Shown here: piece by piece, positions 34,214 through 50,329 of the stretch
Position numbering within the stretch: the stretch's first letter is position 1
Layout: every line of letters begins with the position of its first letter
Source: a virus
DNA length: 64,000 nucleotides
IMG/VR virus record: IMGVR_UViG_3300002026_000003
Direction: 5' to 3' (one strand)
Program-made: the position numbers and the translations under genes
Notes under the pieces: model-generated
What the model was told of the DNA's origin: nothing
What the model saw: the letters and a program-made list of their open reading frames with translations, nothing else
Database searches by the model: none

Positions 34214-35449
34214 ATGACCGTACATCTATATCGCTCTACACAAAAAGACGCTCCCGTTCTAGCGGGTCAGGCGGGTAGCTTGATAGCCTTGCTAAAAGCT
34301 TGCCTAGTTAACGGGTATGGGTCTACATCTGTAGCATCCATTACGCGTAACGCTACCGTAGCTACTGTAGAGTGTCTAGATCATGGGTTCTCCGAGGGAG
34401 ACGTAGCGGTTATTGCAGGGGCAGACCAGAGCGGTTTTAACGGTACTGTTGTAGTAGCTACCGTACCAAACACACACAGTTTTACTTATGCTGTAGTGGA
34501 TACGCTACCTGCGGCGGCTACTGGCGTTGCTATTACCGCTAAACGCGCACCGGCAGGTTGGATTAACATAGCCAATAGCACTAATAGAGAATACTTCCGT
34601 ATAGCGGGTGGGGCCTACATGGATGTAGACGATAGCGGTGTTAGTACGGGCCTCTATACCGTAGCCGATGTAAAAGGCTGGAGGGAACTAGGAACCCAGT
34701 ACGGCTCGTATATGGATTTTCCGCGCACTACCAAAGTAGGCTTTATTAAGTCAGCTACGGAAGATGCTACTGCTAGAGAATGGGTGATTGTAGCCAGCGA
34801 TACGATGCTGTATTTCTGGGTTAACTATAACAGTGACGCTAACGGACTAGGCGGTAAGTTGCATACTTTTGGGTACACTAAAGGTGATGCACTAGTTACT
34901 CCCTCCACAGGCCTACACCCTTGCATAATTGCTGGTAACGCGTGGAATGGCGTAGCTTTCTTACCTAACGACGCAACGTATAACTACAGTGGAGACCTAT
35001 ACGAAAATATATACCAGACGCTAGGTGAAGGAAAGCACCTAGATGTTGTAGTAGCGCTGAATACTATGACTGTAGCTACTGGTAAGTGTGGCCTAATTAG
35101 TGATTGGTCTAAGACCAATAACCAGCGTAGCTTAGGTTTTCCTTCTGGTGGATACCCACAAGAACCCGTTACTGGTAACTGGATGAAGCAACGACTAGCT
35201 CCGGTATTTGTGTATGACATAAACGATACTGGAGTATGGACTAACATACGCGGTGTACTTCCGGGATTCTGGAACCCAATAACTAACATAGATATAACTA
35301 ACGGCTCTGTATTCGGGGAAAGTATCGGTGGAGTACCGACAGTTCCTGCGCGTAGGTTTATCTTCCTACGTCTATCCCCGTCATCCAATGAGCCTACGCG
35401 TGTTGGCGGCGTAGTTCTAGAGTATAGCGATACGTGGCCTACAGTCTGA
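34214..35449 (+). CDS. paralog family member 1 (YRS..APVL..GSLI.LL.ACLVNGYG ... SDTW), putative receptor-binding/tail protein
   Basis: N-terminus MTVHLYRSTQKDAPVLAGQAGSLIALLKACLVNGYG and C-terminus LEYSDTWPTV are shared with ORFs 45418, 46583 and 47547. Confidence 0.6.
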   Translation: MTVHLYRSTQKDAPVLAGQAGSLIALLKACLVNGYGSTSVASITRNATVATVECLDHGFSEGDVAVIAGADQSGFNGTVVVATVPNTHSFTYAVVDTLPAAATGVAITAKRAPAGWINIANSTNREYFRIAGGAYMDVDDSGVSTGLYTVADVKGWRELGTQYGSYMDFPRTTKVGFIKSATEDATAREWVIVASDTMLYFWVNYNSDANGLGGKLHTFGYTKGDALVTPSTGLHPCIIAGNAWNGVAFLPNDATYNYSGDLYENIYQTLGEGKHLDVVVALNTMTVATGKCGLISDWSKTNNQRSLGFPSGGYPQEPVTGNWMKQRLAPVFVYDINDTGVWTNIRGVLPGFWNPITNIDITNGSVFGESIGGVPTVPARRFIFLRLSPSSNEPTRVGGVVLEYSDTWPTV

Positions 35450-35462
35450 TAGGTAGATAGAC

Positions 35463-36599
35463 ATGACGGTACTAGTCTTACTACATGGCGATAGCCTAGC
35501 GGATGATGGGCCGCAGGTACATACGGTAACATCCACCCGCGACGAGGCTACTACGTGCTCCTCAGCGCAATCTGTATTCGCGGGTGGAAAGTCTTTCTAC
35601 TTTCCTACCCCTACACATACTCACTATGTTGAGGTAGACACTAGTGAGGATAACGATCACGATCTATACCACCAAGACGGCACTCTACTTACGCTAGAGT
35701 GCCGCATATACCCTATAGCTTTTTCCTCTACTAGGTCTTCTATAATTGACTTAGGGTACGCCCCTGTTGCTGATGGGTGGGCACTATTCCTAGACCCTGC
35801 CGGTCAGGTAATGGCTATAGCTAGCGGATACGAAGCTTACACCGGGGTATACGTAACCCTTAATGAATGGACAGCCATAAAAGTTAGTTTTGGTACGGGT
35901 GATGGCGCTATATCGGTAGCTGTTGGCGGCAACCTAGTGGCGTTTAGCCCCGGTGCTAACTACTACGAGGTGGTATCTGACGCATACGACCCTTATAAGC
36001 TGCGTATAGGTAACTCAAGATCAGCGGGTACGTCTACGTGCTTCCAAGGGTACATTGACGAGATACGCATATCGTTAGATGAAAATGCTATAGATGAGTC
36101 AGACCCCGCTACATGGGCGGTGGCTACTGAGCCTTTTGCTGCGGTATCGCCCTCCGCGCTATTCCCTATATTAGATTTTATATGGCAGCCGGTATTTTTT
36201 GATACAGAGTTTCCGCCGGTATCCGCAGCTAGAGATATATCTGCATTGGTTACTACTGACATACCCAGCTACGATGCTACGCCCCTACACGATGCTACTT
36301 TGCGTAGGCGTATAGTATTAGGTATGGATGGCCTACCTGATGTAACAATACCCGTAAATGGAGTAATTAGTGGGGTAGTCACCAAGCAGGCCGCGCCAGT
36401 GCCTAATGCCGTAGTGCAGCTATATAGTATGCGTAATAGACAGTTAGAGGCAGTAGTAACAGCGGACACATACGGCGCATACACGTTCCTAGAGTTAAAT
36501 ACTCAGGATAAGTACATGGTAGTGGTTATCGATCCAGACGTTACTGCTACTGGATACGGAGCAAAGGCGCTACCTGACATACAACCAATAACCCTATAA
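35463..36599 (+). CDS. LamG-like (concanavalin-type) protein with C-terminal carboxypeptidase-regulatory-like beta-sandwich
   Basis: GYIDEIRISLDE is typical of Laminin_G_3. C-terminus VISGVVTKQAAPVPNAVVQLYSMRN...YGAYTFLEL...YMVVVID resembles the C-termini of ORFs 44917 and 48568. Confidence 0.45.
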   Translation: MTVLVLLHGDSLADDGPQVHTVTSTRDEATTCSSAQSVFAGGKSFYFPTPTHTHYVEVDTSEDNDHDLYHQDGTLLTLECRIYPIAFSSTRSSIIDLGYAPVADGWALFLDPAGQVMAIASGYEAYTGVYVTLNEWTAIKVSFGTGDGAISVAVGGNLVAFSPGANYYEVVSDAYDPYKLRIGNSRSAGTSTCFQGYIDEIRISLDENAIDESDPATWAVATEPFAAVSPSALFPILDFIWQPVFFDTEFPPVSAARDISALVTTDIPSYDATPLHDATLRRRIVLGMDGLPDVTIPVNGVISGVVTKQAAPVPNAVVQLYSMRNRQLEAVVTADTYGAYTFLELNTQDKYMVVVIDPDVTATGYGAKALPDIQPITL

Positions 36600-36610
36600 A
36601 GGATTGCATA

Positions 36611-36862
36611 ATGGATACGTGCGACACTTGTAAATACTCAGCTATGGAGAATATAGCTACCGTACCCTCACAGTTTCGTGAGTCTCCTATCGAGGTAGTA
36701 CGCGTGTGTAGAAAGAACCCTCCACAGTTACCCCCTGCCATATTTAGCGATCAGCGAGTAACTAGTATGCAGTCACTTAGCCCTAGCATATTCTCCGTAC
36801 ATAGAGCCACTTTTCCTGTAGTACGTAACGATATGTCGTGCGGTAGTTACGAAAAGGCATAG
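36611..36862 (+). CDS. small Cys-motif protein (83 aa)
   Basis: CDTCKY...VCRKNPP...FPVVRNDMSCGSYE resembles a recurring small phage/alphaproteobacterial Cys-motif family, recalled from memory. Confidence 0.45.
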   Translation: MDTCDTCKYSAMENIATVPSQFRESPIEVVRVCRKNPPQLPPAIFSDQRVTSMQSLSPSIFSVHRATFPVVRNDMSCGSYEKA

Positions 36863-36868
36863 CTAGCC

Positions 36869-36897
36869 TTGATCTGTGTTATGTAGTTCTGTATCAT
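36869..36897 (+). promoter_or_regulatory. candidate sigma70-type promoter
   Basis: TTGATC-17 nt-TATCAT, in the 59-nt gap before ATG 36922. Confidence 0.3.
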
Positions 36898-36921
36898 CCA
36901 CGTATATATAGAGGCATAGAG

Positions 36922-37521
36922 ATGGCTACCAAAAAAGCAAACATAGAGATACGCAAGGGCGAGACGTACACAAATACCCTACGGTGGGAGGCACCGCCGT
37001 ATCTGTATCGTCCTATTACTGCGATACTACAGTCTGCGCCTATCCGCATAACAGCGCCCGTACATGGCTTATTGCAGGGTTGGCGAGTAGCTATTGAGTC
37101 TGTCAAAGGGACGGTGCAGGCTAACACCAAGGATGTAAATAACCTAGACGCATGGCCTCGTGTAACGGTAATAGATGCAGATACGGTAGAGCTAAACGAG
37201 ATTAACTCTCTTGAGTACTCCCCGTATATCTCTGGCGGCGTAATTAAATTTAATACCCCGGTAGACCTAGCCGGTTTCACTGCTAGGATGTCAATACGTG
37301 ATAAGCTAGATGGAGTAGAGATAATACTACTAACTACGGCTAACGGTAGGATCATCATAGATAATGCCACCAAGTCCATAGCCCTAGCTATACCCGCCGA
37401 CGTAACGGCGGCAGTTACCCAGAAAAAAGGTGTATACGACATAGAGTTAATATCAAGTGGCGGTCTTGTCTACAGGCTGGCCGAAGGCAGCGTATCTTTC
37501 AGTAAAGAAGTTACTACATAA
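36922..37521 (+). CDS. hypothetical structural protein (199 aa), possibly BppU-N/Ig-like
   Basis: ORF track; a candidate promoter lies upstream. The family guess is weak. Confidence 0.45.
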   Translation: MATKKANIEIRKGETYTNTLRWEAPPYLYRPITAILQSAPIRITAPVHGLLQGWRVAIESVKGTVQANTKDVNNLDAWPRVTVIDADTVELNEINSLEYSPYISGGVIKFNTPVDLAGFTARMSIRDKLDGVEIILLTTANGRIIIDNATKSIALAIPADVTAAVTQKKGVYDIELISSGGLVYRLAEGSVSFSKEVTT

Positions 37522-37531
37522 GGAAATAATC

Positions 37532-37945
37532 ATGGCTATCATGCGTACCTCAGTTGCAGTAAAAAACGCTGCTTTGCAATCGATTGCAACTTTGATTGAT
37601 GCCGGCACAGGCCCCGGCTATATGGAGTTCTATACTGCTCCTATGCCAGCCACTGTGGCTACTGCCGTTAGTACCCAGACTAAGCTAGGCACGTTGACGT
37701 TTGCTGATCCCTGCGGAGCCGTAGCCTCAGGTGTGCTTACATTTTCACCTATTACTCGTGATGATTCAGCGGACGTAAGCGGAGCAGCGGCTTGGGTTCG
37801 GTGCTTCGATAGCGCGGGTGTTGCTCATACCGATCTAGACGTTACCGTTACCGGTGGAGGCGGTTCCGTGCAGCTAAACGCTGTGGACATAGTAGCGGGT
37901 GGCCCGATTGAAATATCTGCGATGACCATTGGCGTAGCGGCGTAA
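37532..37945 (+). CDS. hypothetical structural protein (137 aa)
   Basis: ATG 37532 follows AAGGAA and comes after the upstream TAA, so the track start at 37457 was rejected. Codons 15-19 carry motif copy 14. Confidence 0.5.
   Translation: MAIMRTSVAVKNAALQSIATLIDAGTGPGYMEFYTAPMPATVATAVSTQTKLGTLTFADPCGAVASGVLTFSPITRDDSADVSGAAAWVRCFDSAGVAHTDLDVTVTGGGGSVQLNAVDIVAGGPIEISAMTIGVAA
37574..37589. repeat. motif copy 14
   Basis: TTGCAATCGATTGCAA (exact). Codons 15-19 of ORF 37532 (LQSIAT). Confidence 0.9.
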
Positions 37946-37946
37946 C

Positions 37947-39515
37947 ATGGCCTATAACGCTCCCTCAGCTAATGAGGTAGCGTTACGACTAACCAACGGG
38001 GGCTATACAGCACCCAGCAGCGACTCAGTGCAGCTAGTAATATCGGACGATGCTTCGTCTGGTATATCTGGCATGTGTGCTGCGTCGCTGCAATTTACTT
38101 GCGGGGCTACGGGCAAGCTCGCAGTAACTGGCTACAGTAGCGCTACACTGAGTCTATCCGGTACAACTCACGCTAATCGTGGGCTTGTAGGGCAGGTAGC
38201 CTCTAGTCTATTGCTATTCGCTAACGCGGAGGGGCTATCCCTACCTGCTTCGTTTGATGTATTCGGTACAGCTTCCTACTATCTGGAGTTCATAGCTACA
38301 GCTATGGGTCGCGTAGTAAGAGTGGCAGATGTAGTACTAAATTTCACTAGTCCGTATGTAGTGCCAGATAGTGCAGGGTTAGTATTGAACTTCGGTACCG
38401 GAGTAGTTACTACAACGGCCTTAGCTACTGCATCCTTTGAATTTATTGCCACGGCTACTGGGTACTTACCACCTACAGCACAAGTAGTAGGCGGAATAGA
38501 TTTTTCAGCTAGCGCTACTGGTCGTATTGTATCTAGAGGCGCTGTATCCTGCGCGTTGGCTATATCTTCTAGTGCTCTAGGCAAAGTAGTATATAAAGGC
38601 GCAGCATCTTCGCTAGTATCTTTGTACGCAACTGCCTATGGGGCAGAGGTATACGCGGCTAGTGCAGACCCAAGTATAGCGTTTACTGCGCAAGCTACTG
38701 GTAGCTCCATCCGCGCAGGGGCTGTGGCTGCTAGTATGCTACTACAGGCTAGCGTTACTGCCACTCATGGCTACTCAAGCCACGCTGCGCCTAACCTTTC
38801 TTTCTACGCTAATGCAGCAGGGCATAGCTCCAGACCGGCTATAGTAGGCTCTTCGTTAGGTAGCCTATCCTTCTTCGCAACCTCTGCCGGTAAAGTAGCT
38901 AGTAAGGGCACTGTAGCAGGTACTTTATCGCTAGTATCGCTAGTCGTTGGCGGATCAGCAGGGGCCGCTAGGGTAGTTGGTAGTCTATCATTCTATGCTG
39001 TAGCTAGCGGACGTAAGGTAATAGCCGGCGTAGTAGCACCGACGATACGCTTTGTGTCAGCGGCAGCAGGCATAGGCAGGGCCGGCGCGGTAGGTGGAGG
39101 TGTAGTAGCATACATATCGTTGTACGCTCAATCTCAAGCTAGAGTAGCTACTACAGGCTCAGCTTCTGCTACTTTAGCTTTTGGTAGTCAGGCTTCTGGA
39201 GAGATGGCTGTATCGGGTCTAATACATGCCAATCTAGTTTTGCAATCGATTGCATTCTCTACGCATGCTAGGGTATGTACTGCTCAGGCAGCAATCTCTT
39301 TATATAGCAATGTAGTTGGTGTGTTGCCTCCTTATTGGGCTATTGACCTAGATAGGTCTATGCCTATTTTCATTAGTAACCCTGAGCTACTAGTGTATAG
39401 AAATGACGATATAGAATACTTCTACACTCTGGAGAATAGTGAGTCGTTCGAGTACACTACGCCTAGAGTGATGTTTATACGAAGTGCGTTAGAGGATTTG
39501 TATGTCATCAATTAG
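37947..39515 (+). CDS. repeat-rich Ala/Ser/Gly structural protein (522 aa), beta-helix/fibre-like
   Basis: More than a dozen reiterations of an approximately 20-aa unit (...F.A.A.G...R.GAV...L...). Confidence 0.55.
   Translation: MAYNAPSANEVALRLTNGGYTAPSSDSVQLVISDDASSGISGMCAASLQFTCGATGKLAVTGYSSATLSLSGTTHANRGLVGQVASSLLLFANAEGLSLPASFDVFGTASYYLEFIATAMGRVVRVADVVLNFTSPYVVPDSAGLVLNFGTGVVTTTALATASFEFIATATGYLPPTAQVVGGIDFSASATGRIVSRGAVSCALAISSSALGKVVYKGAASSLVSLYATAYGAEVYAASADPSIAFTAQATGSSIRAGAVAASMLLQASVTATHGYSSHAAPNLSFYANAAGHSSRPAIVGSSLGSLSFFATSAGKVASKGTVAGTLSLVSLVVGGSAGAARVVGSLSFYAVASGRKVIAGVVAPTIRFVSAAAGIGRAGAVGGGVVAYISLYAQSQARVATTGSASATLAFGSQASGEMAVSGLIHANLVLQSIAFSTHARVCTAQAAISLYSNVVGVLPPYWAIDLDRSMPIFISNPELLVYRNDDIEYFYTLENSESFEYTTPRVMFIRSALEDLYVIN
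39240..39255. repeat. motif copy 15
   Basis: TTGCAATCGATTGCAT (1 mismatch). Inside ORF 37947 (LQSIAF). Confidence 0.8.
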
Positions 39516-39924
39516 GCCGGATATCGTTGTATTTAACGGTACCACACACATAATCTCCGCAGGTGCTATAGGGCCTCCCGGCCCCAAGGGAGACCCCGGA
39601 GAGGCTGGCGTACACGTACGCCAGAGCGCAGCTTTGCTAGCGGCGGGTCAAGCGTACAGTATAGACTCTATTCCAGCCAATACCATACGTGCGGTTAAGT
39701 GGCTAGTGTCTATGGAGTCTGTGGACGGTAGGACACACCAATACGAAGTAGCGGCGCATATGGGTATAGCAGAGCCTGCCTACGTAAAGTATGCTGTGCT
39801 AGGGCAGAAGCTTGCTGTATCCATTACGGTAGCCTCGGTTGCTGGTGATATGCACTTATCGGTACAGAATAATGAACCGGTATCTGTATCTATTTCGGTA
39901 CTACGTTTTGGTATGACTAGATGA
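39502..39924 (+). CDS. short collagen-like-motif protein (140 aa)
   Basis: GPPGPKGDPGEAG Gly-X-Y run near the N-terminus. Confidence 0.5.
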   Translation: MSSIRPDIVVFNGTTHIISAGAIGPPGPKGDPGEAGVHVRQSAALLAAGQAYSIDSIPANTIRAVKWLVSMESVDGRTHQYEVAAHMGIAEPAYVKYAVLGQKLAVSITVASVAGDMHLSVQNNEPVSVSISVLRFGMTR

Positions 39925-40118
39925 ACGTAATAGAGGTTAAACAGCTAGGTCTAGCTGCGTACATAAAGGTTAGCGGTGCGGAACTTGTGGGTGTACATGA
40001 GGGTGTATTCACTTTCCTTTCGCTGAAAAGTGTGTCAGAATGGCGCATAGATTACGTCAATTCTTGCTGCCAGAAACACGACTCAGCGGTATGCGAGCTT
40101 CGTAGGTACTTAAAGTAG
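39921..40118 (+). CDS. hypothetical protein (65 aa)
   Basis: ATGA overlap; ORF track. Confidence 0.45.
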   Translation: MNVIEVKQLGLAAYIKVSGAELVGVHEGVFTFLSLKSVSEWRIDYVNSCCQKHDSAVCELRRYLK

Positions 40119-40146
40119 TAACGAAACCTGTGCTTTGGGATTATTT

Positions 40147-40162
40147 TTGAAATCGATTGCAA
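40147..40162. repeat. motif copy 16
   Basis: TTGAAATCGATTGCAA (exact). Intergenic, 23 nt before fibre ATG 40185. Confidence 0.9.
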
Positions 40163-40184
40163 CTAACCATAAAGGATTTATATC

Positions 40185-41750
40185 ATGGCACAAGACCTAT
40201 TCCGCGTAGAAGTTGGCTTTGCTGACGACAACGTTCACTACCTATCTGGCGCTGGCGCACCGTCTGGCGGTCGCGCTGATGACGCGCCAATCGGATCGCG
40301 TTGGAGTAATACCACTAACGGCGATGCTTACACTAAGACAGGCGCAACCGCTTGGACGAAGCTTGCAGTTGGTGGCGATATGTCCTCGCTGCAAACTCAG
40401 GTCAATGACCTATCCACAGAAGTAGATAACATCGAAGCCGGTGTTGGTCTAAATACGGACGGTACGTATACCGCCCCTGTTGGCTCAAACTACCTAGGCG
40501 CGGCTACTACGGTAAAGGCTGGTCTTGTTGCTCTGGATGGGCAGCTAAAGACAACCACCGACAACCTCGGCACGTTGACTACTGACTTTGGTAACTACCA
40601 GACCTCGCAAGACTTGCGTGATGATGGTCAAGATATAGCCATAGCGGGTAAGGTATCGAAGACAGGCGACACTCTATCCGGTAGCTTGGCCTTTGGCGGT
40701 ACTGGTACTGTTACAGGCCTAGCCGCGCCAGTTAACCCCGATGACGCCGCCACTAAGAACTACGTAGATAACAAAGTAGTTGGCCTATCTTGGCAACCGC
40801 CTGTTGGTGGCATTGGCGCAACCAATCCGGCTACCTGCGCTATTGGTGATCGTTTCATCAATACCACGGATGACAAGGTTTACACCGCTACTGGTGTAAA
40901 TGATTGGGGTGCCGGCGTAGCTCCCGATGATGGCTGGGCTACATTCGATAAGTCTACCGAAACTGGGTATAACTTTAACGGCACTGACTGGGTTCAATTT
41001 ACGGGTGGCGGTGCCATAGCTGCCGGTATTGGCCTAGCAATGACGGGCAACCAGCTAGATATTAACCTTGGTGCTGGTATTGCGCAGTTGCCGTCTGACG
41101 AAGTTGGTATTGACGTTCATGTGAATGGCGCGTTGATGCTTACTGTCGATAACGCCAGTGAGTCTACGGATACCGCCGCTCAATTGTCTGTTCGACTTGA
41201 TGGCACTACGCTAACCAAAGGCCCCGGCGGTCTTAAGCTAAGCGCTCCGTGGCAGCTAGCAATCACCGACAATACGGCAGCTATCGCACAAGAGACTATT
41301 GATCGTGGTATTTCGGAAGGCGTATTGGTAGGTCGCCTAGACAACCACGATACTGATATTCTCCTACTGCAAGATACCGTTAATAACTTCGCTCATGTCA
41401 AGAAGAACGGTACAGTAGCTGGCGGGGCCACTGGAGTTATAGACCATCAGCTTCTTGATAACGTGTATGTTGTCAATTATCTGGTATACGTCCGTGATAC
41501 TACCAATGGTCGTGTAACGGTAATGGAGATTCTGGCAACCCATAACGGTACTGAAACTACTGCCGCTACCCAGTGTGACTTCACTAGTTTTGCTAAGCTG
41601 AAAGTTGGCGGCACCTTGGCAGGCCTATCGGTGTCCGTAGCTTTGGTGGGTAGTACTTTGGGCGCTCAGCATCTTGACGTTGTAATCGGCGCAACTAACA
41701 ACATTGTTACCCGCATTGTTGGTAAGTTTGTTGAGACTGAGTACGCATAA
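40185..41750 (+). CDS. tail fibre protein (521 aa)
   Basis: N-terminus FRVEVGFADDNVHYLSGAGAPSG...WSNTTNGDAYTKTG and LVALDGQL are fibre-like. Motif copy 16 and an RBS lie upstream. Confidence 0.6.
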   Translation: MAQDLFRVEVGFADDNVHYLSGAGAPSGGRADDAPIGSRWSNTTNGDAYTKTGATAWTKLAVGGDMSSLQTQVNDLSTEVDNIEAGVGLNTDGTYTAPVGSNYLGAATTVKAGLVALDGQLKTTTDNLGTLTTDFGNYQTSQDLRDDGQDIAIAGKVSKTGDTLSGSLAFGGTGTVTGLAAPVNPDDAATKNYVDNKVVGLSWQPPVGGIGATNPATCAIGDRFINTTDDKVYTATGVNDWGAGVAPDDGWATFDKSTETGYNFNGTDWVQFTGGGAIAAGIGLAMTGNQLDINLGAGIAQLPSDEVGIDVHVNGALMLTVDNASESTDTAAQLSVRLDGTTLTKGPGGLKLSAPWQLAITDNTAAIAQETIDRGISEGVLVGRLDNHDTDILLLQDTVNNFAHVKKNGTVAGGATGVIDHQLLDNVYVVNYLVYVRDTTNGRVTVMEILATHNGTETTAATQCDFTSFAKLKVGGTLAGLSVSVALVGSTLGAQHLDVVIGATNNIVTRIVGKFVETEYA

Positions 41751-42031
41751 TGTTTGTACTACAGGATGCCTTTGAGGTTGATGGCCTCCTGCTGGGAGGG
41801 GTGGCGGCTATATTCACCGCTACCTCTACCCCACAAACAAATGACTATCCTGAGGCTCCTGTGGGGTCTCAGTGCATAGTGCCTGAGGAAGGTGTATATA
41901 CAAAATACTCAGACGGCACATGGAGACGGTCAGTTGATTCAGCAGTAGAGCTTGAAGAACTCGTGCTATACCGTAACGGGGAGCCTGAGTGCTGCTTCTT
42001 TGCGGATAGTGTTGCCAAAGTGAGGGTATGA
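41750..42031 (+). CDS. hypothetical protein (93 aa), possible fibre accessory
   Basis: TAATG coupling between the two fibre genes. Confidence 0.45.
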   Translation: MFVLQDAFEVDGLLLGGVAAIFTATSTPQTNDYPEAPVGSQCIVPEEGVYTKYSDGTWRRSVDSAVELEELVLYRNGEPECCFFADSVAKVRV

Positions 42032-44094
42032 TGCTCCATCAAAATGCGCCTTTAGGTCAGATTCACGTTCCTTATAACTGGAAGTTCGCAGATGCGGCAA
42101 CGCGTTTAGCCTACACGTTTGTTCCTGCGGATGCTGGTAAGTTTGCATTGCAAGATAGCGATGCCTCTCTGTGGCTAGTAACAGATGCCTTGAATACCAC
42201 CCGCATGAGTGGAATGCCTACGGCTGGTGACGTTGGGGCAGAGCCTGCCGGTGCGGTAGCTGCTCATGAGGCGTTGCTTGATCCCCACCCACAATACACG
42301 ACGGCAGGGGAAGTAACTACTATTGTTGAGTGGCCTATCGCCCAGCATACTGCTTTGCCTAACCCGCACAATACCGGAATCTCAAATATTGCTGGACTAC
42401 AAACAGCTTTGGATGGAAAAGCGCCAACATCACATTTCCATAACCAAAGTGAAGTAACTGGGTTAGTAGCCGCTCTTGGTACAAAAGCAAACGCCACTGA
42501 CGTATATACCAAAGCACAGGTTGATACTTCGTTATCCACTAAGGCCAATGTGGGCGCATCCTACACTAAGGCTGAAGAGGATGTATTGTTAGGCGGAAAA
42601 ACAGATACAGGGCATTTGCACACAATTGCAAATGTAACCGGACTCCAAACGTCACTTGACGCGAAGGCCAATGCCTCTGAGGTATATACCCAGACGCAAA
42701 CAGACACTCTACTAGGTACGAAGGCGAACACCTCCCATACCCATTCAATTGCCAATGTCACAGGTCTTCAAACGGCTCTTGATGGTAAGACAGATACTGG
42801 TCACGGTCATGCAATTACTGATGTAACCAACCTGCAAACAACTCTTGATGGGAAGGCGAATACGGCTGATGTCTATACACAGACTCAAGTCAATACCGCG
42901 CTGGCATTAAAGGCAGATGCGACGGCTGTATATACAAAGAGTGAGACGGACACCCGTATTCAAGCAGTGATTGATTTGGCTCCTGCTGCTCTGGATACCT
43001 TGAATGAAATCGCGGCTGCATTGGGAGATGATCCGAACTTTGCCACCACGATGACCACGCAGTTTGGTTTGAAGGCAGACAAGTCGGATACCTATACCAA
43101 AGCTCAAGTAGATACAAGTCTTGCTGGTAAGGCTGACTCATCACACGTGCATTCAATTGCAAATGTGACTAACCTACAAACGTCATTGGATGCCAAGGCA
43201 AATCAGGCTACGACTTATACCAAGCCAGAAGTTGATACAGCACTGACAGCCAAGGCAAACCAAGCAACTACCTATACCAAAACGGAGGTAGATACTGCTC
43301 TGTCTGGTAAGGCTGCTACGGTGCATACTCACACCATTGCAAACGTAACGGGTCTCCAGACAGCCTTGGACGGTAAAGCAGCAACTGCCCACTCCCATGC
43401 AATTGCTGATACCACCGGACTACAAACTGCCCTAGACGGCAAGGCAGCTACGAGCCATGTGCATACAATTGCAAACGTCACAGGCTTGCAAACTGCTCTG
43501 GATGGAAAGACCAATACAGGCCACACGCATACTCCAGCAGAGGCAGGAGCAGACCCAGTAGGTACGGCAGCGGCGGCTGTAGCAGCACACGTAGCCGCAG
43601 CAGACCCTCACCCTACTTACCTGACCCAAGCTGAAGGTGATGCAAGGTATGCTCAGTCAAGTGGGGAGTTGGCCGTATTAGCTTCTAACTTTACTACGAC
43701 CTCCAACACCCTTCAAAGCACTGGTCTTGCTGTAGCACTTGCAGCTAATACACACTATGAGATTGATGGATTTTTCATTTGCCAATCGTCAGCTACCAAT
43801 AACGGTCTTGGTGTGGGATTCAATGGCCCTGCTGGGTACCTCCATGCCGCGTTTAGCATGACTGTGCCCACCTCAGCCACTGCTGCTATTACGATGAATA
43901 GTGAGGGGTACTTGGATAGCTTGTCTTCAACTTCTTCGATGGCAGCGAACACAGACTTCTTAGTACAGGTAAAAGGTATCGTAGTCACTGGGGCTACTGC
44001 CGGTAATCTCACTGCTTACCTACGTTCTGAGTTGAGCGGTAGCACAGCGCGTATGATGGATCATTCAATGTTGAAGGCGAGGGAAGTAGCATGA
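42028..44094 (+). CDS. tail fibre protein with HxH / IANVTGLQTALDGKA tandem repeats (688 aa)
   Basis: About 13 reiterations of YTK.EVDT.L..KA.....H.H.IANVTGLQTALDGK, flanked by AAH....DPHPQY motifs. Confidence 0.75.
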   Translation: MMLHQNAPLGQIHVPYNWKFADAATRLAYTFVPADAGKFALQDSDASLWLVTDALNTTRMSGMPTAGDVGAEPAGAVAAHEALLDPHPQYTTAGEVTTIVEWPIAQHTALPNPHNTGISNIAGLQTALDGKAPTSHFHNQSEVTGLVAALGTKANATDVYTKAQVDTSLSTKANVGASYTKAEEDVLLGGKTDTGHLHTIANVTGLQTSLDAKANASEVYTQTQTDTLLGTKANTSHTHSIANVTGLQTALDGKTDTGHGHAITDVTNLQTTLDGKANTADVYTQTQVNTALALKADATAVYTKSETDTRIQAVIDLAPAALDTLNEIAAALGDDPNFATTMTTQFGLKADKSDTYTKAQVDTSLAGKADSSHVHSIANVTNLQTSLDAKANQATTYTKPEVDTALTAKANQATTYTKTEVDTALSGKAATVHTHTIANVTGLQTALDGKAATAHSHAIADTTGLQTALDGKAATSHVHTIANVTGLQTALDGKTNTGHTHTPAEAGADPVGTAAAAVAAHVAAADPHPTYLTQAEGDARYAQSSGELAVLASNFTTTSNTLQSTGLAVALAANTHYEIDGFFICQSSATNNGLGVGFNGPAGYLHAAFSMTVPTSATAAITMNSEGYLDSLSSTSSMAANTDFLVQVKGIVVTGATAGNLTAYLRSELSGSTARMMDHSMLKAREVA
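42376..43536 (+). repeat. in-frame tandem peptide repeats within the fibre gene
   Basis: Repeated DNA such as cacacaattgcaaatgtaaccggactccaaacg and catacaattgcaaacgtcacaggcttgcaaact encodes the H.H.IANVTGLQT units. Confidence 0.8.
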
Positions 44095-44468
44095 AACTAG
44101 ATAACATGCTGGCTCATATTGATGCCAAGGCTGGTGCAGTACGTGGATGCTATATCACGATTGCCCCCGGACAGGAGGCTACGTACATTATGAAGGCTAC
44201 TCAAGCAAGAGCGTTTTCGATGGCGGGTTTCGTTGGTATTATTCCCGGCCTTATACAAGCGGAGATGAGTGCTACTAACCAAGGGGCTGAAGTAGTTGTA
44301 GCCCGTATTCTTGGGGAGGAGGCACAGTGGGCAAAGTTGGCAGGAGCTATAGAGAATATTCGTAGGTCTGCCAAACAATCGTTGCTGTCTTCTACTCTTG
44401 ACGAAGCTGCCAAGGACGAAGTATACGATCAGGCTATTAGACAACTAACTGCGTTGATGCCTAAATGA
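44091..44468 (+). CDS. hypothetical protein (125 aa), possible fibre assembly factor
   Basis: ATGA overlap with the fibre gene stop. Confidence 0.45.
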   Translation: MKLDNMLAHIDAKAGAVRGCYITIAPGQEATYIMKATQARAFSMAGFVGIIPGLIQAEMSATNQGAEVVVARILGEEAQWAKLAGAIENIRRSAKQSLLSSTLDEAAKDEVYDQAIRQLTALMPK

Positions 44469-44890
44469 GACTAGCTTTCTACAAGGGCCGTACTCGGCTA
44501 TTCAATAGGGCCGTGTCTTGGTGGACGCATGGCCCGTACTCTCATACAGAGCTAATACTTGGCAATGAGATGGACGGCACTCTGGTATGTGCGTCATCTA
44601 GCTGTGTGGATGGAGGTGTGCGCTTTAAGAACATGGCGCTAGATGACAACCATTGGGATGTTATGGAAATACGCGGAGATTCCTTAGCTGCGTATAACTG
44701 GTTTATGGCTCATACAGGCTTACCTTACGATGTTCTAGGCTTAGCTGGTTTTGTAGGTCGTAGAGGTCTTGACGATAAGAATAAATGGTTTTGTTCTGAG
44801 GCTTGCGCAGCCGCTTTAGGTATGGAAGAGCCGTGGCGGTATGATCCTAATACGCTGTATGTAGTCGCTAAGCAGTTTTTGCAGATTTGA
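44465..44890 (+). CDS. putative permuted papain-like (YiiX/C92, NlpC/P60-related) hydrolase
   Basis: GPYSHTELIL ... KWFCSEACAAALG gives His-then-Cys order, as in permuted NlpC/P60 enzymes. Its TGA stop lies inside motif copy 17. Confidence 0.4.
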   Translation: MRLAFYKGRTRLFNRAVSWWTHGPYSHTELILGNEMDGTLVCASSSCVDGGVRFKNMALDDNHWDVMEIRGDSLAAYNWFMAHTGLPYDVLGLAGFVGRRGLDDKNKWFCSEACAAALGMEEPWRYDPNTLYVVAKQFLQI

Positions 44891-44902
44891 AATCGATTGC
44901 AA
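44887..44902. repeat. motif copy 17
   Basis: TTGAAATCGATTGCAA (exact). Positions 2-4 form the TGA stop of ORF 44465. GGAGG and ATG 44917 follow. Confidence 0.9.
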
Positions 44903-44916
44903 ACCGGAGGTAGCTC

Positions 44917-45408
44917 ATGGCTGATCTAGGTAACATAGGCGTAGGTTCTACCTCTACAGGAAAAGCCGCCACCATAGTAGCTACTGGCGGGGTAAAGAAG
45001 ATACGGGACATGCTTAGGTCTGTCCTATACGTAGGAGGCGCTACTAACCGTACTAGACACCACTCGTATGTAGTAAGCAACTCTGGGGTAATTAACCGCG
45101 CAATACTTGGTTTACGTAAGCTTCCAGACTACTTACCTGCCGGGGTTAGTACCTTATCAGCGGACTTAAGTGGTAGCATTTTTGGGGTAGTTAAAGTAGA
45201 GGGCGTAGCTACTGCCGGAAGAATAGTTAGACTATATGCCAGACCGAATGGTAAACTGGTAAAAGAAACAGTGTCAGAGGTTAATGGAGAATTTACTGTA
45301 ATAGACTTATACGTAGGTATGACCTACTACGTTATTGCTTTAGACGATGACGGCGGCGCAGACTATAACGCTGTTATATTCGATAAACTTGTACCAACAG
45401 TTAGCTAA
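44917..45408 (+). CDS. small protein with carboxypeptidase-regulatory-like beta-sandwich (163 aa)
   Basis: SGSIFGVVKVEGVATAGRIVRLYARPNGKLVKE...GEFTVIDL...YYVIALDDDGGADYNAVIFDKLVP parallels the C-termini of ORFs 35463 and 48568. Confidence 0.5.
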   Translation: MADLGNIGVGSTSTGKAATIVATGGVKKIRDMLRSVLYVGGATNRTRHHSYVVSNSGVINRAILGLRKLPDYLPAGVSTLSADLSGSIFGVVKVEGVATAGRIVRLYARPNGKLVKETVSEVNGEFTVIDLYVGMTYYVIALDDDGGADYNAVIFDKLVPTVS

Positions 45409-45417
45409 GGAGTAGCC

Positions 45418-46572
45418 ATGACTAGTGTCAAAATATACCGTTCCTCTGACGTAGGGGCACCTGTACTAGGTAACATAGCAGGGTCGCTCATCGGAGTATT
45501 GGATGCCTGCTTGGTTAACGGCTTTGCTGACAGGCAGGTAACCAGCATATCTAGGATTGGCTCAGTGGCTACCGCTACACTAGCGGGTCATGGCTACCAT
45601 AAATTCGATACTGTATTGGTATCCGGGGCCACGCAGACTGAGTATAACGGCACAGTGAAGGTAACAGAAGCTACTGCCGATACTTTCTCCTACGCTATAG
45701 TAGGTACGCCAACTACTCCGGCTACAGGCACGATCAACGCTAAAAAACCCGGCGCTGGTTGGACTAAAGAATTTACCGGAACCAATAAAGCTGCTTATCG
45801 AATGGGGCCGGGATCGAACCTACATTACCTCCGCGTAGATGATACTGGACTAACATCGGCAGAATGTAGAGGCTACGAATCTATGAGTAGTGTCGACGCA
45901 GGCACTGCCGCATTCCCTACTACAACGCAAATGAATGTTAGCTATTGGTGGAAGGCTGATGCAGCGGCGCGTGATTGGATGGTAATAGCGACAGATCGTA
46001 TCCTTTACTATTGGCATGACTACAGTAATACGCAATCCTCTAGGTATCTGTGGATGTTTGGTCAGATACGCGCATACAAAGCGGATGATGCTTTTGGTTC
46101 TGTTATGTTCTCCACTAACCAGCCAAACGCTAGCTATAGTTACTACTACCCTTGTACCGTAGAGTCGCATGTAGGCACCACTGGCAGCTTTAGGTTTTTG
46201 GCTAGGACATATAACCAGAGCGGTAGCTCTGTGCCCCTAGGGTTTATGGGAGACTACAGTAAAATGCGTGGTACGACGTACATAGGTCACGATTCACCTA
46301 CGACCTATGGCATACAGTACCCTCACGGCCCTGACGCAGGATTGTACGTTACCCCACTGTACATTACCGAGAACCCCGGCACTCCTGTAATACGCGGGGA
46401 GATGCCCGGACTATGGTGCCCACTACACTATGCCTCTGCTTTTAACCACGGTGATGTTTTCGGCGGCACAGGGGATATGGCAGGTAAGTACTTTATGATT
46501 GCGCACGTATTCACTACGTCTAGCCAAAAGGGCGCGTTTGCCATTGAGCTTTCGGATACTTGGGCTACTTAA
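45418..46572 (+). CDS. paralog family member 2
   Basis: N-terminus VKIYRSSDVGAPVLGNIAGSLIGVLDACLVNGFA; C-terminus IELSDTWAT. Confidence 0.6.
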   Translation: MTSVKIYRSSDVGAPVLGNIAGSLIGVLDACLVNGFADRQVTSISRIGSVATATLAGHGYHKFDTVLVSGATQTEYNGTVKVTEATADTFSYAIVGTPTTPATGTINAKKPGAGWTKEFTGTNKAAYRMGPGSNLHYLRVDDTGLTSAECRGYESMSSVDAGTAAFPTTTQMNVSYWWKADAAARDWMVIATDRILYYWHDYSNTQSSRYLWMFGQIRAYKADDAFGSVMFSTNQPNASYSYYYPCTVESHVGTTGSFRFLARTYNQSGSSVPLGFMGDYSKMRGTTYIGHDSPTTYGIQYPHGPDAGLYVTPLYITENPGTPVIRGEMPGLWCPLHYASAFNHGDVFGGTGDMAGKYFMIAHVFTTSSQKGAFAIELSDTWAT

Positions 46573-46582
46573 TAGGTGACGT

Positions 46583-47545
46583 ATGGCTAAGACAGTTCGT
46601 GTATTGCGCAGCACAGACGCTAGCGCCCCAGTTCTTACCGGTACTACTGGGTCGCTAATAGCGCTTCTTGATGCTTGCTTAGTGAATGGGTACGGTAGTT
46701 CTACGCCTCTTGGGTGGACTAAGCCGTATAGCGGCACAAACCTCGCGGCCTACCGTATGAGTACCGTAGAGGGCAGTGGAGCATATCTACGCGTTGATGA
46801 CTCCTTAACCTCTACTAATGCTGTGTATACTAGGCTAGCTGGCTACACCACCATGACGGCTATATCTACTGGTTCTGATATGTTTCCAGTAATGGCAAAC
46901 TACATGGGCTTGCGCAAGTCTAATAGCGCAGATAGTGTAGCTAGGCCTTGGGTAGTGATAGGTGACGAAGCTAGGTTCTATCTGCTGATACAGAACGGAG
47001 ACTCGGCGGGGGCTACTATATGGGATTGCTCTTTCTTTGGTGATATTGAATCTTACATAGCTAATGATGCCTACAAAGCTATGCTGGTTTGTAGGTATAG
47101 CACTAGTGGAACTTTCCCTACCTATACTGATAACCAGATACACTACATGCAGCACTATACGTGGAATAGTGTATCGTCTAGGCAAATGGCTCGCAACCAC
47201 GCGGGAGCCGCCACACCAATATATGTGGGTGCGCACACAGACTCGTTTAAGTGCGGCGCTAGTAACTACAACGCATGGTATGCTGGAGCAGGCGGGTACT
47301 TAGCGTACCCTAACGTAGCTGGTAATAGCCTATTCATGGCCCCTGTATGGATACACCAAAGTACAACTACTCCGTATGTAGTTAGAGGTCACCAACCCGG
47401 AATGTGGTGCCCCGGCCATAATAGGCCTTTGGCTAATAACGAGACCTTTACTGGGTCTGGCGCTTTAGCAGGCAAGACTTTTGAAGCATTCCACTTACAC
47501 TCCAGCGGCGAGATAATTCTAGAAACTTCTAATACGTGGGGCTAA
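46583..47545 (+). CDS. paralog family member 3
   Basis: N-terminus VRVLRSTDASAPVLTGTTGSLIALLDACLVNGYGS; C-terminus LETSNTWG. Confidence 0.6.
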   Translation: MAKTVRVLRSTDASAPVLTGTTGSLIALLDACLVNGYGSSTPLGWTKPYSGTNLAAYRMSTVEGSGAYLRVDDSLTSTNAVYTRLAGYTTMTAISTGSDMFPVMANYMGLRKSNSADSVARPWVVIGDEARFYLLIQNGDSAGATIWDCSFFGDIESYIANDAYKAMLVCRYSTSGTFPTYTDNQIHYMQHYTWNSVSSRQMARNHAGAATPIYVGAHTDSFKCGASNYNAWYAGAGGYLAYPNVAGNSLFMAPVWIHQSTTTPYVVRGHQPGMWCPGHNRPLANNETFTGSGALAGKTFEAFHLHSSGEIILETSNTWG

Positions 47546-47546
47546 T

Positions 47547-48563
47547 ATGACTGTACGAGTCTATCGATCTACTGACGTAGGCGCTCCGTCAATTGACCTA
47601 TCCATAGGGTCAATAATAACGCTATTGGATGCCTGCTTAGTTAATGGTTACGGAAGTAAGGCTGCTCTTGGCTGGACTAAGCAATTCTCCGGTACCAACA
47701 AGGCAGTATACTTGCAAGGTACTGGCGGTGCAGGTAACGCTCTTAGAGTAGTTGACGATGTAGTTAATCAGGTAGGTGGGGGAGTAACTACTGCATGTAA
47801 GCTGCATGGCGTACGTGGCGCATTGACAGTAGATACCTACAAGGGTAGGTTTGGCGATAGCGTAGGCTGCTTCATCACGAAGCCGGAGACTACGGGAGGT
47901 GGAGGATGGGTTCTAATCGGTAACGAATACTCGTTCTACCTATGCACTAAACGTGCTGGTTGGGGCAATGGATGGAGCATAGGCTATTTTGGTGATTGTT
48001 CCTCTTATGCTAGTGATCCCGCTACTGATATAGGGAAGACTATATTCTCTTTCCCTACAGCGCAGACTACTGTAGGTAGTCCACCTCCGTCTAACTATGA
48101 TGGGGTTATCGGCTTTATAAGCAGTGGCTCAGGTAACTCAGGCAGCCCCGGCACTAGACTAGCTGGTGACGTAGGCGGTATATATACAGACGCTAACGGG
48201 TACGGCGGGGTAATGATTAACTTCGCGCTAGCTATGGGGTACCTTAAAGACACTATACTGTACCCAAGTCGTGTAAGTAATGGGCTAGTATGCTCGCCAG
48301 TAATGGTAGTAATTCCTAGTAGCAGCGTACTAACTCAACCTGCTGGCTACCAAGGAGATACAGAAATACGTGGAGTTATCCCCGGAAGGTATATCCCACT
48401 GCACCACTCGTCTAAGTTTACCCCAGAGCCGCAAAAGCAGTTTACCTTTACCTCTGGGGAGATGGCGGGTAAGACTCTAGAAGCTTTTTACTCATGGGAT
48501 TACTCTACCTCTGCGCAGGGTAATACTAACTTAGTGCTATTAGAAGTATCAGATACTTGGTGA
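47547..48563 (+). CDS. paralog family member 4
   Basis: N-terminus VRVYRSTDVGAPSIDLSIGSIITLLDACLVNGYGS; C-terminus LLEVSDTW. Confidence 0.6.
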   Translation: MTVRVYRSTDVGAPSIDLSIGSIITLLDACLVNGYGSKAALGWTKQFSGTNKAVYLQGTGGAGNALRVVDDVVNQVGGGVTTACKLHGVRGALTVDTYKGRFGDSVGCFITKPETTGGGGWVLIGNEYSFYLCTKRAGWGNGWSIGYFGDCSSYASDPATDIGKTIFSFPTAQTTVGSPPPSNYDGVIGFISSGSGNSGSPGTRLAGDVGGIYTDANGYGGVMINFALAMGYLKDTILYPSRVSNGLVCSPVMVVIPSSSVLTQPAGYQGDTEIRGVIPGRYIPLHHSSKFTPEPQKQFTFTSGEMAGKTLEAFYSWDYSTSAQGNTNLVLLEVSDTW

Positions 48564-48567
48564 TGCT

Positions 48568-48987
48568 ATGCCTCAAGTCTACCCGCTGCAAAACGCACAG
48601 CGATACCTAGGTAATTCTCTAGCCGATGACACGACTGCTATATGTGTTTTGCAATCGATTGCAACTAGAGACAGCCAGCACGGCCTAGAGACTCGTGGGT
48701 TACTATTACCTTCTCCACAAAAGGTAGGAGGCTCTGCTTTACCGGGGCTAGTAGTTAACCACATTAGCGGTACCGTATCCGAAGGGTTATCGCCAGTAGC
48801 TAGGGTTGTAAGGGCGTACCGCCGTAGTGATGGTGCTTTGGTAGGTACTACAGTAAGTGTGGCCGGCACAGGGGCGTTTAGTATGCCTATCTACGGTACG
48901 CCTGAAGAGGTTACAGTGGTAGCTTTTGACGACGCCTCTGGCTTATCGTACAATGCTGCCATAGCTGATAAAGTGATACCCGCATAA
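48568..48987 (+). CDS. small protein with carboxypeptidase-regulatory-like beta-sandwich (139 aa)
   Basis: ISGTVSEGLSPVARVVRAYRRSDGALVG...GAFSMPIYG...VTVVAFDDASGLSYNAAIADKVIPA. Carries motif copy 18. Confidence 0.5.
   Translation: MPQVYPLQNAQRYLGNSLADDTTAICVLQSIATRDSQHGLETRGLLLPSPQKVGGSALPGLVVNHISGTVSEGLSPVARVVRAYRRSDGALVGTTVSVAGTGAFSMPIYGTPEEVTVVAFDDASGLSYNAAIADKVIPA
48649..48664. repeat. motif copy 18
   Basis: TTGCAATCGATTGCAA (exact). Codons 28-32 of ORF 48568 (LQSIAT). Confidence 0.9.
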
Positions 48988-49003: not shown

Positions 49004-49372
49004 ATGGCGCAACCTAACGATACAGTATGGAATGGAGTAGACCGTAGGGATAGTGGAATTCCTGTGCACGATACGTCACCCATGCCAAAGACAGTAACTA
49101 TAGAGATGGTGTACGGATTACTACGTGACCATATCAAGCAGGAGCGTGAATGGCGCGACGATATATCGAAAGCTTTTCCGGTAGACCGGCATGGAGAGCC
49201 TGATTACTCAGGGCATGGTGATTACCATACAAAGCTTATTGACCGCGCAGCAAAGGCTGAAGGTGCAAAAGAGCGGCTAATCGAAAAAGTAGCAGGAGGC
49301 TCTATATGGGCTTTACTAATTTTCATAGGCACAGCGGCACTAGCCTACCTGAAAGACCACATACTGAAATGA
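49004..49372 (+). CDS. membrane-anchored protein with a single C-terminal TM (122 aa), lysis-cassette associated
   Basis: C-terminal GGSIWALLIFIGTAALAYL is a TM segment. First gene of the lysis region. Confidence 0.45.
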   Translation: MAQPNDTVWNGVDRRDSGIPVHDTSPMPKTVTIEMVYGLLRDHIKQEREWRDDISKAFPVDRHGEPDYSGHGDYHTKLIDRAAKAEGAKERLIEKVAGGSIWALLIFIGTAALAYLKDHILK

Positions 49373-49851: not shown

Positions 49852-49853
49852 AA

Positions 49854-50141: not shown

Positions 50142-50329
50142 TGGAACGATATGCCTCCCGCAAGTTCATACTTGCGTTAATAACATTGCTAGTAAGTACA
50201 TGGGTGCTATTTGAGCATCTATTAGATGCTTCTGCATTTAAGGCAATTGTTATCGGTACGGTAGGTGCTTACATTATGGGCAACGTGACACAGAAGGTAG
50301 TAGATAAGAAAGACCAAAGTGACAGTTGA
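50141..50329 (+). CDS. second small membrane protein (62 aa, 2 TM), holin/antiholin-like
   Basis: TAATG overlap, so the track start at 50114 was rejected. TM segments FILALITLLVSTWVLF and AIVIGTVGAYIMG. Confidence 0.5.
   Translation: MERYASRKFILALITLLVSTWVLFEHLLDASAFKAIVIGTVGAYIMGNVTQKVVDKKDQSDS

Follow-up and report, generated by a model that had tools for sequence, protein, structure and literature searches.

In the dual or branched tailspike systems of bacteriophages K1-5, SP6, CBA120, and G7C, several receptor-binding proteins are carried on one adaptor, and these proteins are trimeric tailspikes or fibers with an N-terminal adaptor region and C-terminal enzymatic or binding domains. A different architecture is found in the Pseudomonas siphophage JBD30, which has three lateral "bent-arm" fibers, each a stack of three gp47-gp48 heterodimers; anchored on proteins of the distal tail and upper baseplate, the fibers clasp the type IV pilus, and a virion contains nine copies each of gp47 and gp48 (PDB 8RK3/8RK5; Valentova et al., 2024, PMC11445458). 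In phages M6 and JM2, host-range variants have been mapped to a gp48-like gene (PMC11577772). This article examines a group of genes in a virus known from IMG/VR record IMGVR_UViG_3300002026_000003, of which a stretch of 64,000 nucleotides (hereafter the window) was analyzed. Between positions 34,214 and 48,987 it encodes four paralogous proteins, termed P1 to P4, and three copies of a small beta-sandwich (BS) module (Table 1). P1–P4 are very probably structural tail-tip proteins of a large unstudied family, with a function that is probably related to adsorption.

The P proteins share features with both of these systems. As in K1-5, SP6, CBA120, and G7C, the window holds clustered, probably adsorption-related proteins with a conserved attachment region and a variable remainder; however, the P proteins appear to be compact single-domain subunits conserved at both ends, and their similarity to those tailspikes is limited to an inserted barrel. 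Like JBD30 gp47 and gp48, homologs of which influence host range, they would be compact, beta-rich siphophage baseplate proteins of the virion, of about 300 amino acids (aa), and they are encoded by diverged paralogs side by side. Unlike gp47 and gp48, they have a regular BS partner and may carry an inserted beta-barrel. The heterodimers and the binding of pili are features of JBD30 and would extend to the P proteins by analogy only.

The seven open reading frames (ORFs) concerned, namely P1–P4 and the BS-bearing genes 35463, 44917 (BS-a), and 48568 (BS-b), are intact, lie on the + strand, and are each preceded by a Shine-Dalgarno-like sequence. Adjoining ORFs among them are separated by −1 to 26 nt (13 nt between P1 and 35463), and their GC content and third-position GC (GC3) equal those of the neighboring tail genes. 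P1–P4 align end to end with 43 invariant columns and are 25–33% identical to one another in a four-way alignment, a level of amino-acid identity at which synonymous sites are saturated. In pairwise BLASTP comparisons the E-values are 2e-44 (P1–P2), 1e-30 (P3–P4; 5e-33, with 32% identity, where P3 is the best hit of P4), 5e-29 (P2–P3), 1e-11 (P1–P3), 1e-8 (P2–P4), and 4e-8 (P1–P4). An earlier note, made from the sequence alone, had proposed a four-member paralog family accompanied by three BS modules, and homology far beyond chance in alignments and BLASTP bears this out. The conserved ends and variable center that it described are equally evident, since mean pairwise column identity is 50–67% in columns 1–40 and 43–52% in two C-terminal blocks as against 12–31% in columns 161–380. 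The motifs it gave for the conserved blocks are slightly idealized: P1 has K for D in LLDAC and is without the AGK.F block, and P3 has L for Y in YRS.

P1 and P2 also carry the extra insert of about 70 aa that had been claimed for them (alignment columns 42–114), a small beta-barrel for which the P1 copy gives a match to Pfam End_beta_barrel (PF12195) with an E-value of 7e-4 and 20 bits, under the gathering cut-off of 35. The insert domain recurs in cyanophage fibers, in baseplate gp6/J-like proteins, and in a PA14-bearing giant protein; there are 19 repeats of it in P0154 (4,855 aa), which also carries E1_FCCH, PA14, LTD (Lamin-tail), CotH, and Big_12 domains, and seven copies in P0183 (627 aa). 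The barrel is thus an autonomous repeat, which Pfam relates to E1_FCCH and End_beta_barrel.

The P family is large. P1 and P2 match phrog_9998, P3 and P4 match phrog_9600, and all four also match phrog_19312, while there was no Pfam match above threshold, no NCBIfam match, and no match to the defense families of PADLOC; in the PDB, searches by sequence with P2, with P3, and with a profile of 36 sequences returned nothing meaningful. A HMMER scan of 1.84 billion cluster representatives (50%-identity clusters) yielded 7,991 matches at E ≤ 1e-3, some of the weaker of which only the insert domain accounts for, and 2,099 matches at E ≤ 1e-30. Among sequenced phages, tblastn identified 64–67 carrier records, nearly all with a single matching place, which include phages of Xanthomonas, Stenotrophomonas, Xylella, Ralstonia, Pseudomonas, Acidovorax, and Rhizobium. 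Members from isolates are gp40 of Xylella phage Salvo, DLP4 BIT20_009, DLP5 gp028, FoX4 gp36, and RS138 ORF49, and these occupy the same tail-module position as in the window, with a BS-bearing gene next. The isolate genomes examined carry one P copy, whereas the window has four together with three BS modules, and its second cluster, 9.5 kb downstream of the first pair, sets it apart from them. PHROG 9600 bears the label "tail assembly protein," a name that the Salvo record gives to eight consecutive genes and that the DLP4 authors took from the Salvo annotation. No experiment behind the label and no functional study of the family were found, and the label looks generic.

The BS modules are related to one another to different degrees. 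BS-a matches BS-b with an E-value of 8e-13 and the C-terminus of 35463 with 2e-7, and because the direct comparison of 48568 with 35463 gives an E-value of only 0.059, the link between these two is transitive, through 44917. The description of 35463 as a LamG-like protein that ends with the module is supported by a match of its residues 73–203 to Pfam Laminin_G_3 (PF13385) at 31.4 bits, above the 27.6 cut-off. That the module resembles a carboxypeptidase-regulatory-like sandwich is fair as a fold class, but the family assignment is not reached: 35463 scores 26.4 bits against CarboxypepD_reg (PF13620), under the cut-off of 32.3, and neither 44917 nor 48568 matches that Pfam family. In an AlphaFold2 model of BS-a, built from a four-sequence alignment, residues 76–155 form seven strands with a predicted local distance difference test (pLDDT) of 76–83 and the N-terminal 75 aa are unconfident; Foldseek recovers with it just generic sandwiches of the transthyretin, CnaB, macroglobulin (MG), and FN3-like kinds (best E 5.5e-3).

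Comparison of loci indicates that BS-bearing genes are regular companions of P genes. The set comprised 80 viral-contig loci with the P family together with isolates and metagenomic contigs, in which ORFs were scanned with hidden Markov models (HMMs) of P and BS. Among the 84 loci other than the window, a BS-bearing gene directly follows the last P gene in 56 of the 76 that have room for one, and the true fraction must exceed this because the BS HMM, built from three sequences, misses Salvo gp39. The module is C-terminal in 53 of these 56 partners, whose lengths are bimodal, with one class of about 100–166 aa that consists of the module alone (shortest 98 aa), another of about 320–455 aa, and a few of up to 934 aa. 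Salvo gp39 (350 aa), which has a sub-threshold LamG match and a BLAST link to BS (E 8e-8), falls with 35463 in the longer class as a combination of LamG and BS. FoX4 gp37 carries the module at its C-terminus (hhalign E 4e-5), and since it resembles Salvo gp39 in size and position, its N-terminus would be LamG-like. Both proteins match 35463 in architecture and in their position right after P, and DLP5 gp029 has the same position; all three bear the label "tail fiber protein," a putative assignment. In comparison with Salvo, FoX4, and DLP5, the window has two additional stand-alone BS proteins, one of which lies 5' of a P gene. The earlier idea that BS proteins bracket the tandem array therefore holds for their positions, but they are not simply brackets, given that a BS gene is the regular downstream partner of P in at least 56 of 76 loci.

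The fold of the P family was addressed with an AlphaFold2 model of P2 (36-sequence alignment), which is compact and confident (pLDDT 89.5; predicted template-modeling score, pTM, 0.91) and consists of a short N-terminal strand and helix, the inserted small barrel (residues ~43–110), and a large beta-rich body. The top Foldseek matches in the PDB are 8rk3_G (305 residues, E 5e-6, template-modeling (TM) score 0.59 by target, all 305 residues aligned) and 8rk3_K (317 residues, E 6e-5, TM 0.52 by target), both with a probability of 1.00. By their chain lengths these would be gp48 (307 aa) and gp47 (318 aa) of JBD30, both of which are present in 8RK3/8RK5. Other PDB matches, to endosialidases and ubiquitin E1, cover the inserted barrel only, in keeping with its sub-threshold End_beta_barrel match, and apart from this barrel no fiber or tailspike match was obtained in the PDB or among predicted viral structures. 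In the latter (BFVD), there are matches to a homolog from Acidovorax phage ACP17 (TM 0.81) and, at 12–14% identity to P2, to two proteins labeled "virion structural protein," from FoX4 and from Burkholderia phage KL1. A fold that is enzymatic or not structural would have spoken against a role in adsorption, and the model resembles the JBD30 tail-fiber subunits instead. It is also unlike a classical trimeric tail fiber or receptor-binding protein, being compact with both termini conserved.

Evidence that a member of the P family is part of the virion comes from FoX4 and bears on P1–P4 indirectly. LC-MS/MS of purified FoX4 virions recovered gp36, which belongs to the family and shares 35% identity with P3 (E 9e-50), with 4 unique peptides and 24.2% coverage (PMC9746216, Table 1). 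Absence from virions had been named as an outcome that would discredit the proposed role, and the presence of this homolog favours a structural P. With the JBD30-like fold and the position in the tail module, it makes the earlier suggestion of adsorption-related virion tail proteins very probably correct.

In Salvo, DLP4, DLP5, FoX4, RS138, and the metagenomic loci, P genes are located in the tail module after the tape-measure and hub genes. The commonest order is tape measure, a phrog_6128 protein of about 1,200 aa, P, the BS partner, and a phrog_3758 gene ("virion structural protein"), and Ralstonia phage RS138 has this order in ORF46-51 plus one extra small ORF. Homologs of 20538 (phrog_6128) are present in 55 of the 84 loci and typically end right before P; examples of this family elsewhere are positions 6342-9968 of locus L070 and ORF48 of RS138. 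Homologs of 37532 (phrog_3758) occur in 46 of the 84, just after the P-BS pair. In the lineage of the window and loci L003 and L041, the phrog_6128 protein seems to have lost its middle and to have become separated from P by several extra tail genes. L003, a 101-kb contig and the one clear relative of the window, has a single P+BS pair at the place of P1 and 35463, and its P protein is closer to P2 (41%) than to P1 (31%).

Copy number varies among the 85 loci, with one P gene in 71, two in 10, three in 3, and four in the window only; flanks were limited to 10 kb, so that distant extra copies could escape these counts. Arrangements include P-BS-P-BS (L041), PPP followed by three BS-bearing genes (L020), PP with two BS genes (L023), and PP or PPP with one partner. 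The earlier note considered four copies unusual, and four is indeed the maximum, but arrays of two or three in 13 of the 84 other loci make the window unusual in degree and not in kind. In every multi-copy locus the P copies are 33–52% identical to one another, as expected for subfunctionalized partners. P1, P2, and P3 are each closer to relatives in other genomes than to their own paralogs (P2 is 43% identical to P0002, and P3 is 43% identical to P0108, 43% to the copy in a Mu-like phage, and 38% to Salvo gp40), while the nearest relative of P4 among the family members compared is P3. Since the copies are old and P1–P3 are closer to those of other genomes, the array is not a recent tandem duplication, and the sequence comparisons suggest that it was either long maintained or assembled by exchange. 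Cassette shuffling had been named as something to look for in related phages, but no close relative carrying the second cluster, in swapped or other form, was found. A metagenome query with P4 found nothing, 75 metagenome loci anchored on the endolysin had no P or BS gene, and 9 loci anchored on gene 44465 had only that gene in common with the window.

The Mu-like phage just mentioned (L086, a 46-kb contig of Logan SRR15167834) has its P+BS pair, of 303 aa and 140 aa, at 10001-11331 between Portal_Mu and Phage_Mu_F genes, that is, in a block of head genes rather than in a tail module; its BS was recognized by hhalign with a probability of 97.7%. Because the pair sits between these genes, P and BS move as a unit.

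The reading preferred here, which is given a little better than an even chance, is that P1–P4 are structural subunits of distal tail (baseplate or tail-tip) appendages, with a JBD30 gp47/gp48-like fold, paired with partners and either co-assembling or forming separate appendages. The fold core and the subunit or baseplate contacts would be provided by the strand-helix at the N-terminus (..GSLIALLDACLVNGYG), which is highly conserved, together with the strands at the C-terminus, and the divergent central loops would form an exposed ligand-binding surface that in P1 and P2 includes the inserted lectin-like beta-barrel. Because the P2 model is compact, the conserved N- and C-terminal blocks are taken here to be fold core or subunit interface more probably than a detachable adaptor, and conservation of both ends in one compact domain speaks against a detachable N-terminal anchor on the baseplate. 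Each P gene or array may work with a cognate partner encoded alongside. The conserved C-terminal BS module of the partner would be the constant element, and its variable N-terminus, which ranges from nothing through LamG and Ig-like domains to about 850 aa, the payload; since it stays the same at the C-terminus of partners that otherwise differ, the module looks like a docking element. P1 and 35463 would be the ancestral canonical pair, as a BS-bearing gene regularly follows P (compare Salvo gp40 and gp39, or FoX4 gp36 and gp37), and BS-a/P2/P3/P4/BS-b a further array, also old, where the tail operon ends. Most likely, the paralogs in tandem would co-assemble into hetero-oligomeric appendages like gp47/gp48 or form several distinct appendages, and either outcome would widen or strengthen adsorption. 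Homology, copy number, conservation of the gene pair, similarity of fold, and the presence of one homolog in virions are observed, and oligomerization, docking through BS, and ligand binding are proposals.

A number of observations weigh against this reading. In hhalign comparisons the P family matches the gp48 family weakly (E 1.3e-3, probability 19%) and the gp47 family no better (E 0.03-0.06), although the same core segment is aligned every time; as a calibration, the gp47 and gp48 families match each other with 96% probability and an E-value of 1e-9. TM-scores of 0.45–0.59 are moderate. The weakness of the profile match means that a shared fold and possibly remote homology may be claimed, but not membership of the gp47/gp48 families. 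A resemblance by eye between the N-terminal strand-helix segments of both families ("...NG[WY]G") gave nothing when hhalign was limited to that segment and was not used, and hhalign of 20538, 21542, 23099, 33100, 36922, and 37947 revealed no gp47/gp48-like protein among these window products. Genomic position differs as well: gp47 and gp48 follow the tape-measure gene and P follows the hub, and in the window the P genes are found at distances of 14 kb and 25 kb downstream of the tape measure, with hub-like genes before them. Salvo has a gp47 homolog right after its tape-measure gene (E 1e-15) beside its P gene, and FoX4 has two candidates of about 34 kDa (gp29/gp30) at the gp47/gp48 position in addition to P. 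Because Salvo, and apparently FoX4, has both, P must be a separate component and no local replacement of gp47/gp48. Hetero-oligomerization, moreover, can be no general rule, because most genomes have one P gene and homo-oligomers must work. Finally, FoX4 gp37, the BS partner, is absent from the list of FoX4 virion proteins (PMC9746216) and could be a non-virion assembly factor.

The strongest competing explanation, which is nonetheless judged rather unlikely, is the one originally offered, that P1–P4 are interchangeable receptor-binding proteins whose N-terminus docks on one baseplate site and each of which recognizes a different receptor, giving a multi-receptor host range. It draws on the N-terminus being the best-conserved segment, on the variable center, and on the location of the genes at the distal end of the tail module, the usual place for receptor-binding proteins; in many loci P directly follows a single large tail-tip protein, and the closeness of P1–P3 to copies in other genomes is compatible with module exchange. 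Against it, the P2 model is a single compact domain and not an anchor plus fiber, and with the C-terminus also conserved the variable part consists of internal loops. In addition, the only solved analog (JBD30) uses co-assembling paralogs, no close relative with a swapped array was found, and all four genes, close-packed and in one orientation, show no sign of being expressed alternatively. For the tandem array as such, by comparison with JBD30, co-assembling paralogs offer a reading as good as that of interchangeable receptor-binding proteins.

A second explanation concerns the partners alone and would make P a stable virion component and the BS proteins non-virion assembly or chaperone factors, like the assembly proteins encoded downstream of fibers. 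This is unlikely, although several facts fit it: the BS gene regularly stands right after P, many partners have just 98–166 aa, BS-a has a first half for which disorder is predicted, and the FoX4 virions contained detectable gp36 without gp37. Absence from one mass-spectrometry list is, however, weak evidence, around half of the BS partners are 250–934 aa long, with LamG or Ig-like domains typical of exposed structural proteins, and the transthyretin/CnaB-like sandwich is a common structural decoration fold. For the small BS proteins, a role as chaperones is nevertheless an alternative to be taken seriously.

That the P family is enzymatic, for example a tail-borne hydrolase of surface polymers or cell walls, is very improbable. 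The JBD30 authors report that gp47 is classed in the nitrilase hydrolase superfamily, and the insert resembles an endosialidase beta-barrel; but gp47 itself gave no Pfam match here, no enzyme was matched by the P sequences in Pfam, NCBIfam, or the PDB, and the resemblance to endosialidases extends no further than the non-catalytic barrel (TM 0.17 for P2 taken whole), which P3 and P4 do not have. Likewise very improbable are P as non-structural "tail assembly proteins" or as accessory (moron) genes unrelated to the virion, as the label in Salvo and PHROG 9600 and the moron-like place between the portal and Mu-F genes might suggest, since that label looks generic and no experiment was found to support it, FoX4 gp36 was detected in virions, the fold corresponds to that of virion proteins, and no defense-family match was obtained.

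A broader version of the preferred reading can be entertained, though it is speculative and probably wrong as a whole. P and BS would constitute a self-contained mobile adhesion cassette for otherwise unrelated tails (JBD30-like baseplates, compact tips of tape measure, phrog_6128, P, and BS, siphoviruses of about 100 kb, the Mu-like phage, and the 156-kb ACP17), building fibers of stacked globular subunits and not of trimeric shafts. The four P and three BS of the window would then be a programmable hetero-oligomeric appendage with several binding surfaces, in which the order of subunits mirrors that of the genes (BS-P2-P3-P4-BS). If true, this would be a second general fiber architecture, of which JBD30 gp47/gp48 is so far the sole solved example.

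Table 1. Features of the window, with positions counted from its first nucleotide.
Feature	Position	Strand	Evidence or remark
Portal	6869	+	
Major capsid protein	10574	+	
Major tail protein with Ig-like domain	13461	+	
Tape-measure protein, 1,672 aa	15128-20146	+	
333-aa protein after the tape measure; ends match phrog_6128 N- and C-terminal domains	20538..21539	+	phrog_6128, E 1.9e-47
16-nt near-palindrome TTGAAATCGATTGCAA	34186..34201	.	ends 13 nt before the P1 start codon
P1, 411 aa, barrel insert, canonical family position	34214..35449	+	phrog_9998, E 3.5e-46
35463, partner of P1, 378 aa; LamG-like N-terminal domain and C-terminal BS	35463..36599	+	Laminin_G_3, BS homology
phrog_3758 homolog ("virion structural protein"), 137 aa	37532..37945	+	phrog_3758, E 4e-29
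16-nt motif, as at 34186	44887..44902	.	ends 15 nt ahead of the BS-a start codon and heads the second cluster
BS-a, 163 aa; C-terminal ~80 aa form the BS module; unusually 5' of a P gene	44917..45408	+	alignments, E 8e-13 to 48568
P2, 384 aa, barrel insert, first of the tandem trio	45418..46572	+	phrog_9998, E 4.1e-81
P3, 320 aa, short form without insert; closest to Salvo gp40, FoX4 gp36, and a Mu-like phage copy	46583..47545	+	phrog_9600, E 1.9e-56
P4, 338 aa, short form, most divergent	47547..48563	+	phrog_9600, E 9.9e-32
BS-b, 139 aa; regular position 3' of the P array, lysis genes next	48568..48987	+	BS homology

All long ORFs of the window are on the + strand and form a late region of siphovirus type, in which about 29 kb of tail-tip genes follow the tape measure and a lysis block begins at about 49.0 kb. 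The database entry of P2 is a contig of 102,004 bases, so that the phage would be about 100 kb in size. No tRNAs were found, the 15-kb region had no megablast match among 50,697 phage records, and a scan for promoters and terminators returned nothing that exceeds the shuffled background. A C-terminal segment of the tape-measure protein (aa ~1532–1622) matches the endolysin family phrog_971 (E 7e-11), which suggests a cell-wall-degrading domain on this protein as judged from sequence.

Several genes between the two clusters have features of their own. The 140-aa ORF 39502-39924, which has no PHROG match, encodes a short Gly-X-Y stretch of collagen-like kind (GPPGPKGDPGEAG) close to the N-terminus, and a terminator-like hairpin (39987-40012) and the 16-nt palindrome lie between it and the fiber gene 40185. 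The gene at 42028-44094 encodes a 688-aa fiber-like protein with at least seven units of the Pfam PTR "phage tail repeat" (E 5e-51), which are also diverged direct DNA repeats, often 66 nt apart and 62–75% identical. Next to the second cluster, 44465-44890 encodes a 141-aa protein that matches phrog_1128 (E 6e-39) and has homologs 46–57% identical in otherwise unrelated viral contigs, one of them of 322 kb; a gene of similar size in L003 has a Peptidase_C93 match and no BLAST similarity to 44465. The lysis block (49004-52044) follows the array and comprises membrane-protein-like small ORFs (49004 and 49854), a 207-aa endolysin-like protein (50319) with many metagenomic relatives 50–74% identical, and spanin-like ORFs at 51326 and 51751, the latter with a lipobox-like LAVLAFFIATGFTAC.

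A 16-nt palindrome, TTGCAATCGATTGCAA (variant TTGAAATCGATTGCAA), is repeated at some 24–29 sites of the window, among them 11572, 19355, 30362, 34186, 37574, 40147, 44887, 48649, 52233, 53599, and 60452, with 52 strand matches at no more than two mismatches where 0.02 would be expected. Roughly half of these sites lie between genes, and five end 13–23 nt 5' of start codons, including those of P1, the fiber gene 40185, and BS-a. The palindrome is also present in L003 (six sites), L099, and L100, and in L003 it occupies intergenic positions immediately ahead of P and immediately behind BS. Its candidate roles are those of an operator, an element of late promoters, or a boundary between modules.

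The window presents the JBD30-type globular fiber-subunit fold in a different family, at another genomic position, and with an obligate partner, in the largest expansion seen. The P family, large and without a Pfam model, is carried by phages of the plant pathogens Xylella, Xanthomonas, Ralstonia, and Acidovorax and by phages that infect clinical Stenotrophomonas and Pseudomonas. Some of these phages serve, or have been proposed, for biocontrol and therapy, and the "tail assembly protein" label under which members of the P family are recorded is misleading. The link in fold, the BS partner, and the conserved tail-tip block together provide a testable hypothesis for a host-range determinant, and the phage with four copies offers a natural test of whether such paralogs co-assemble or act separately.

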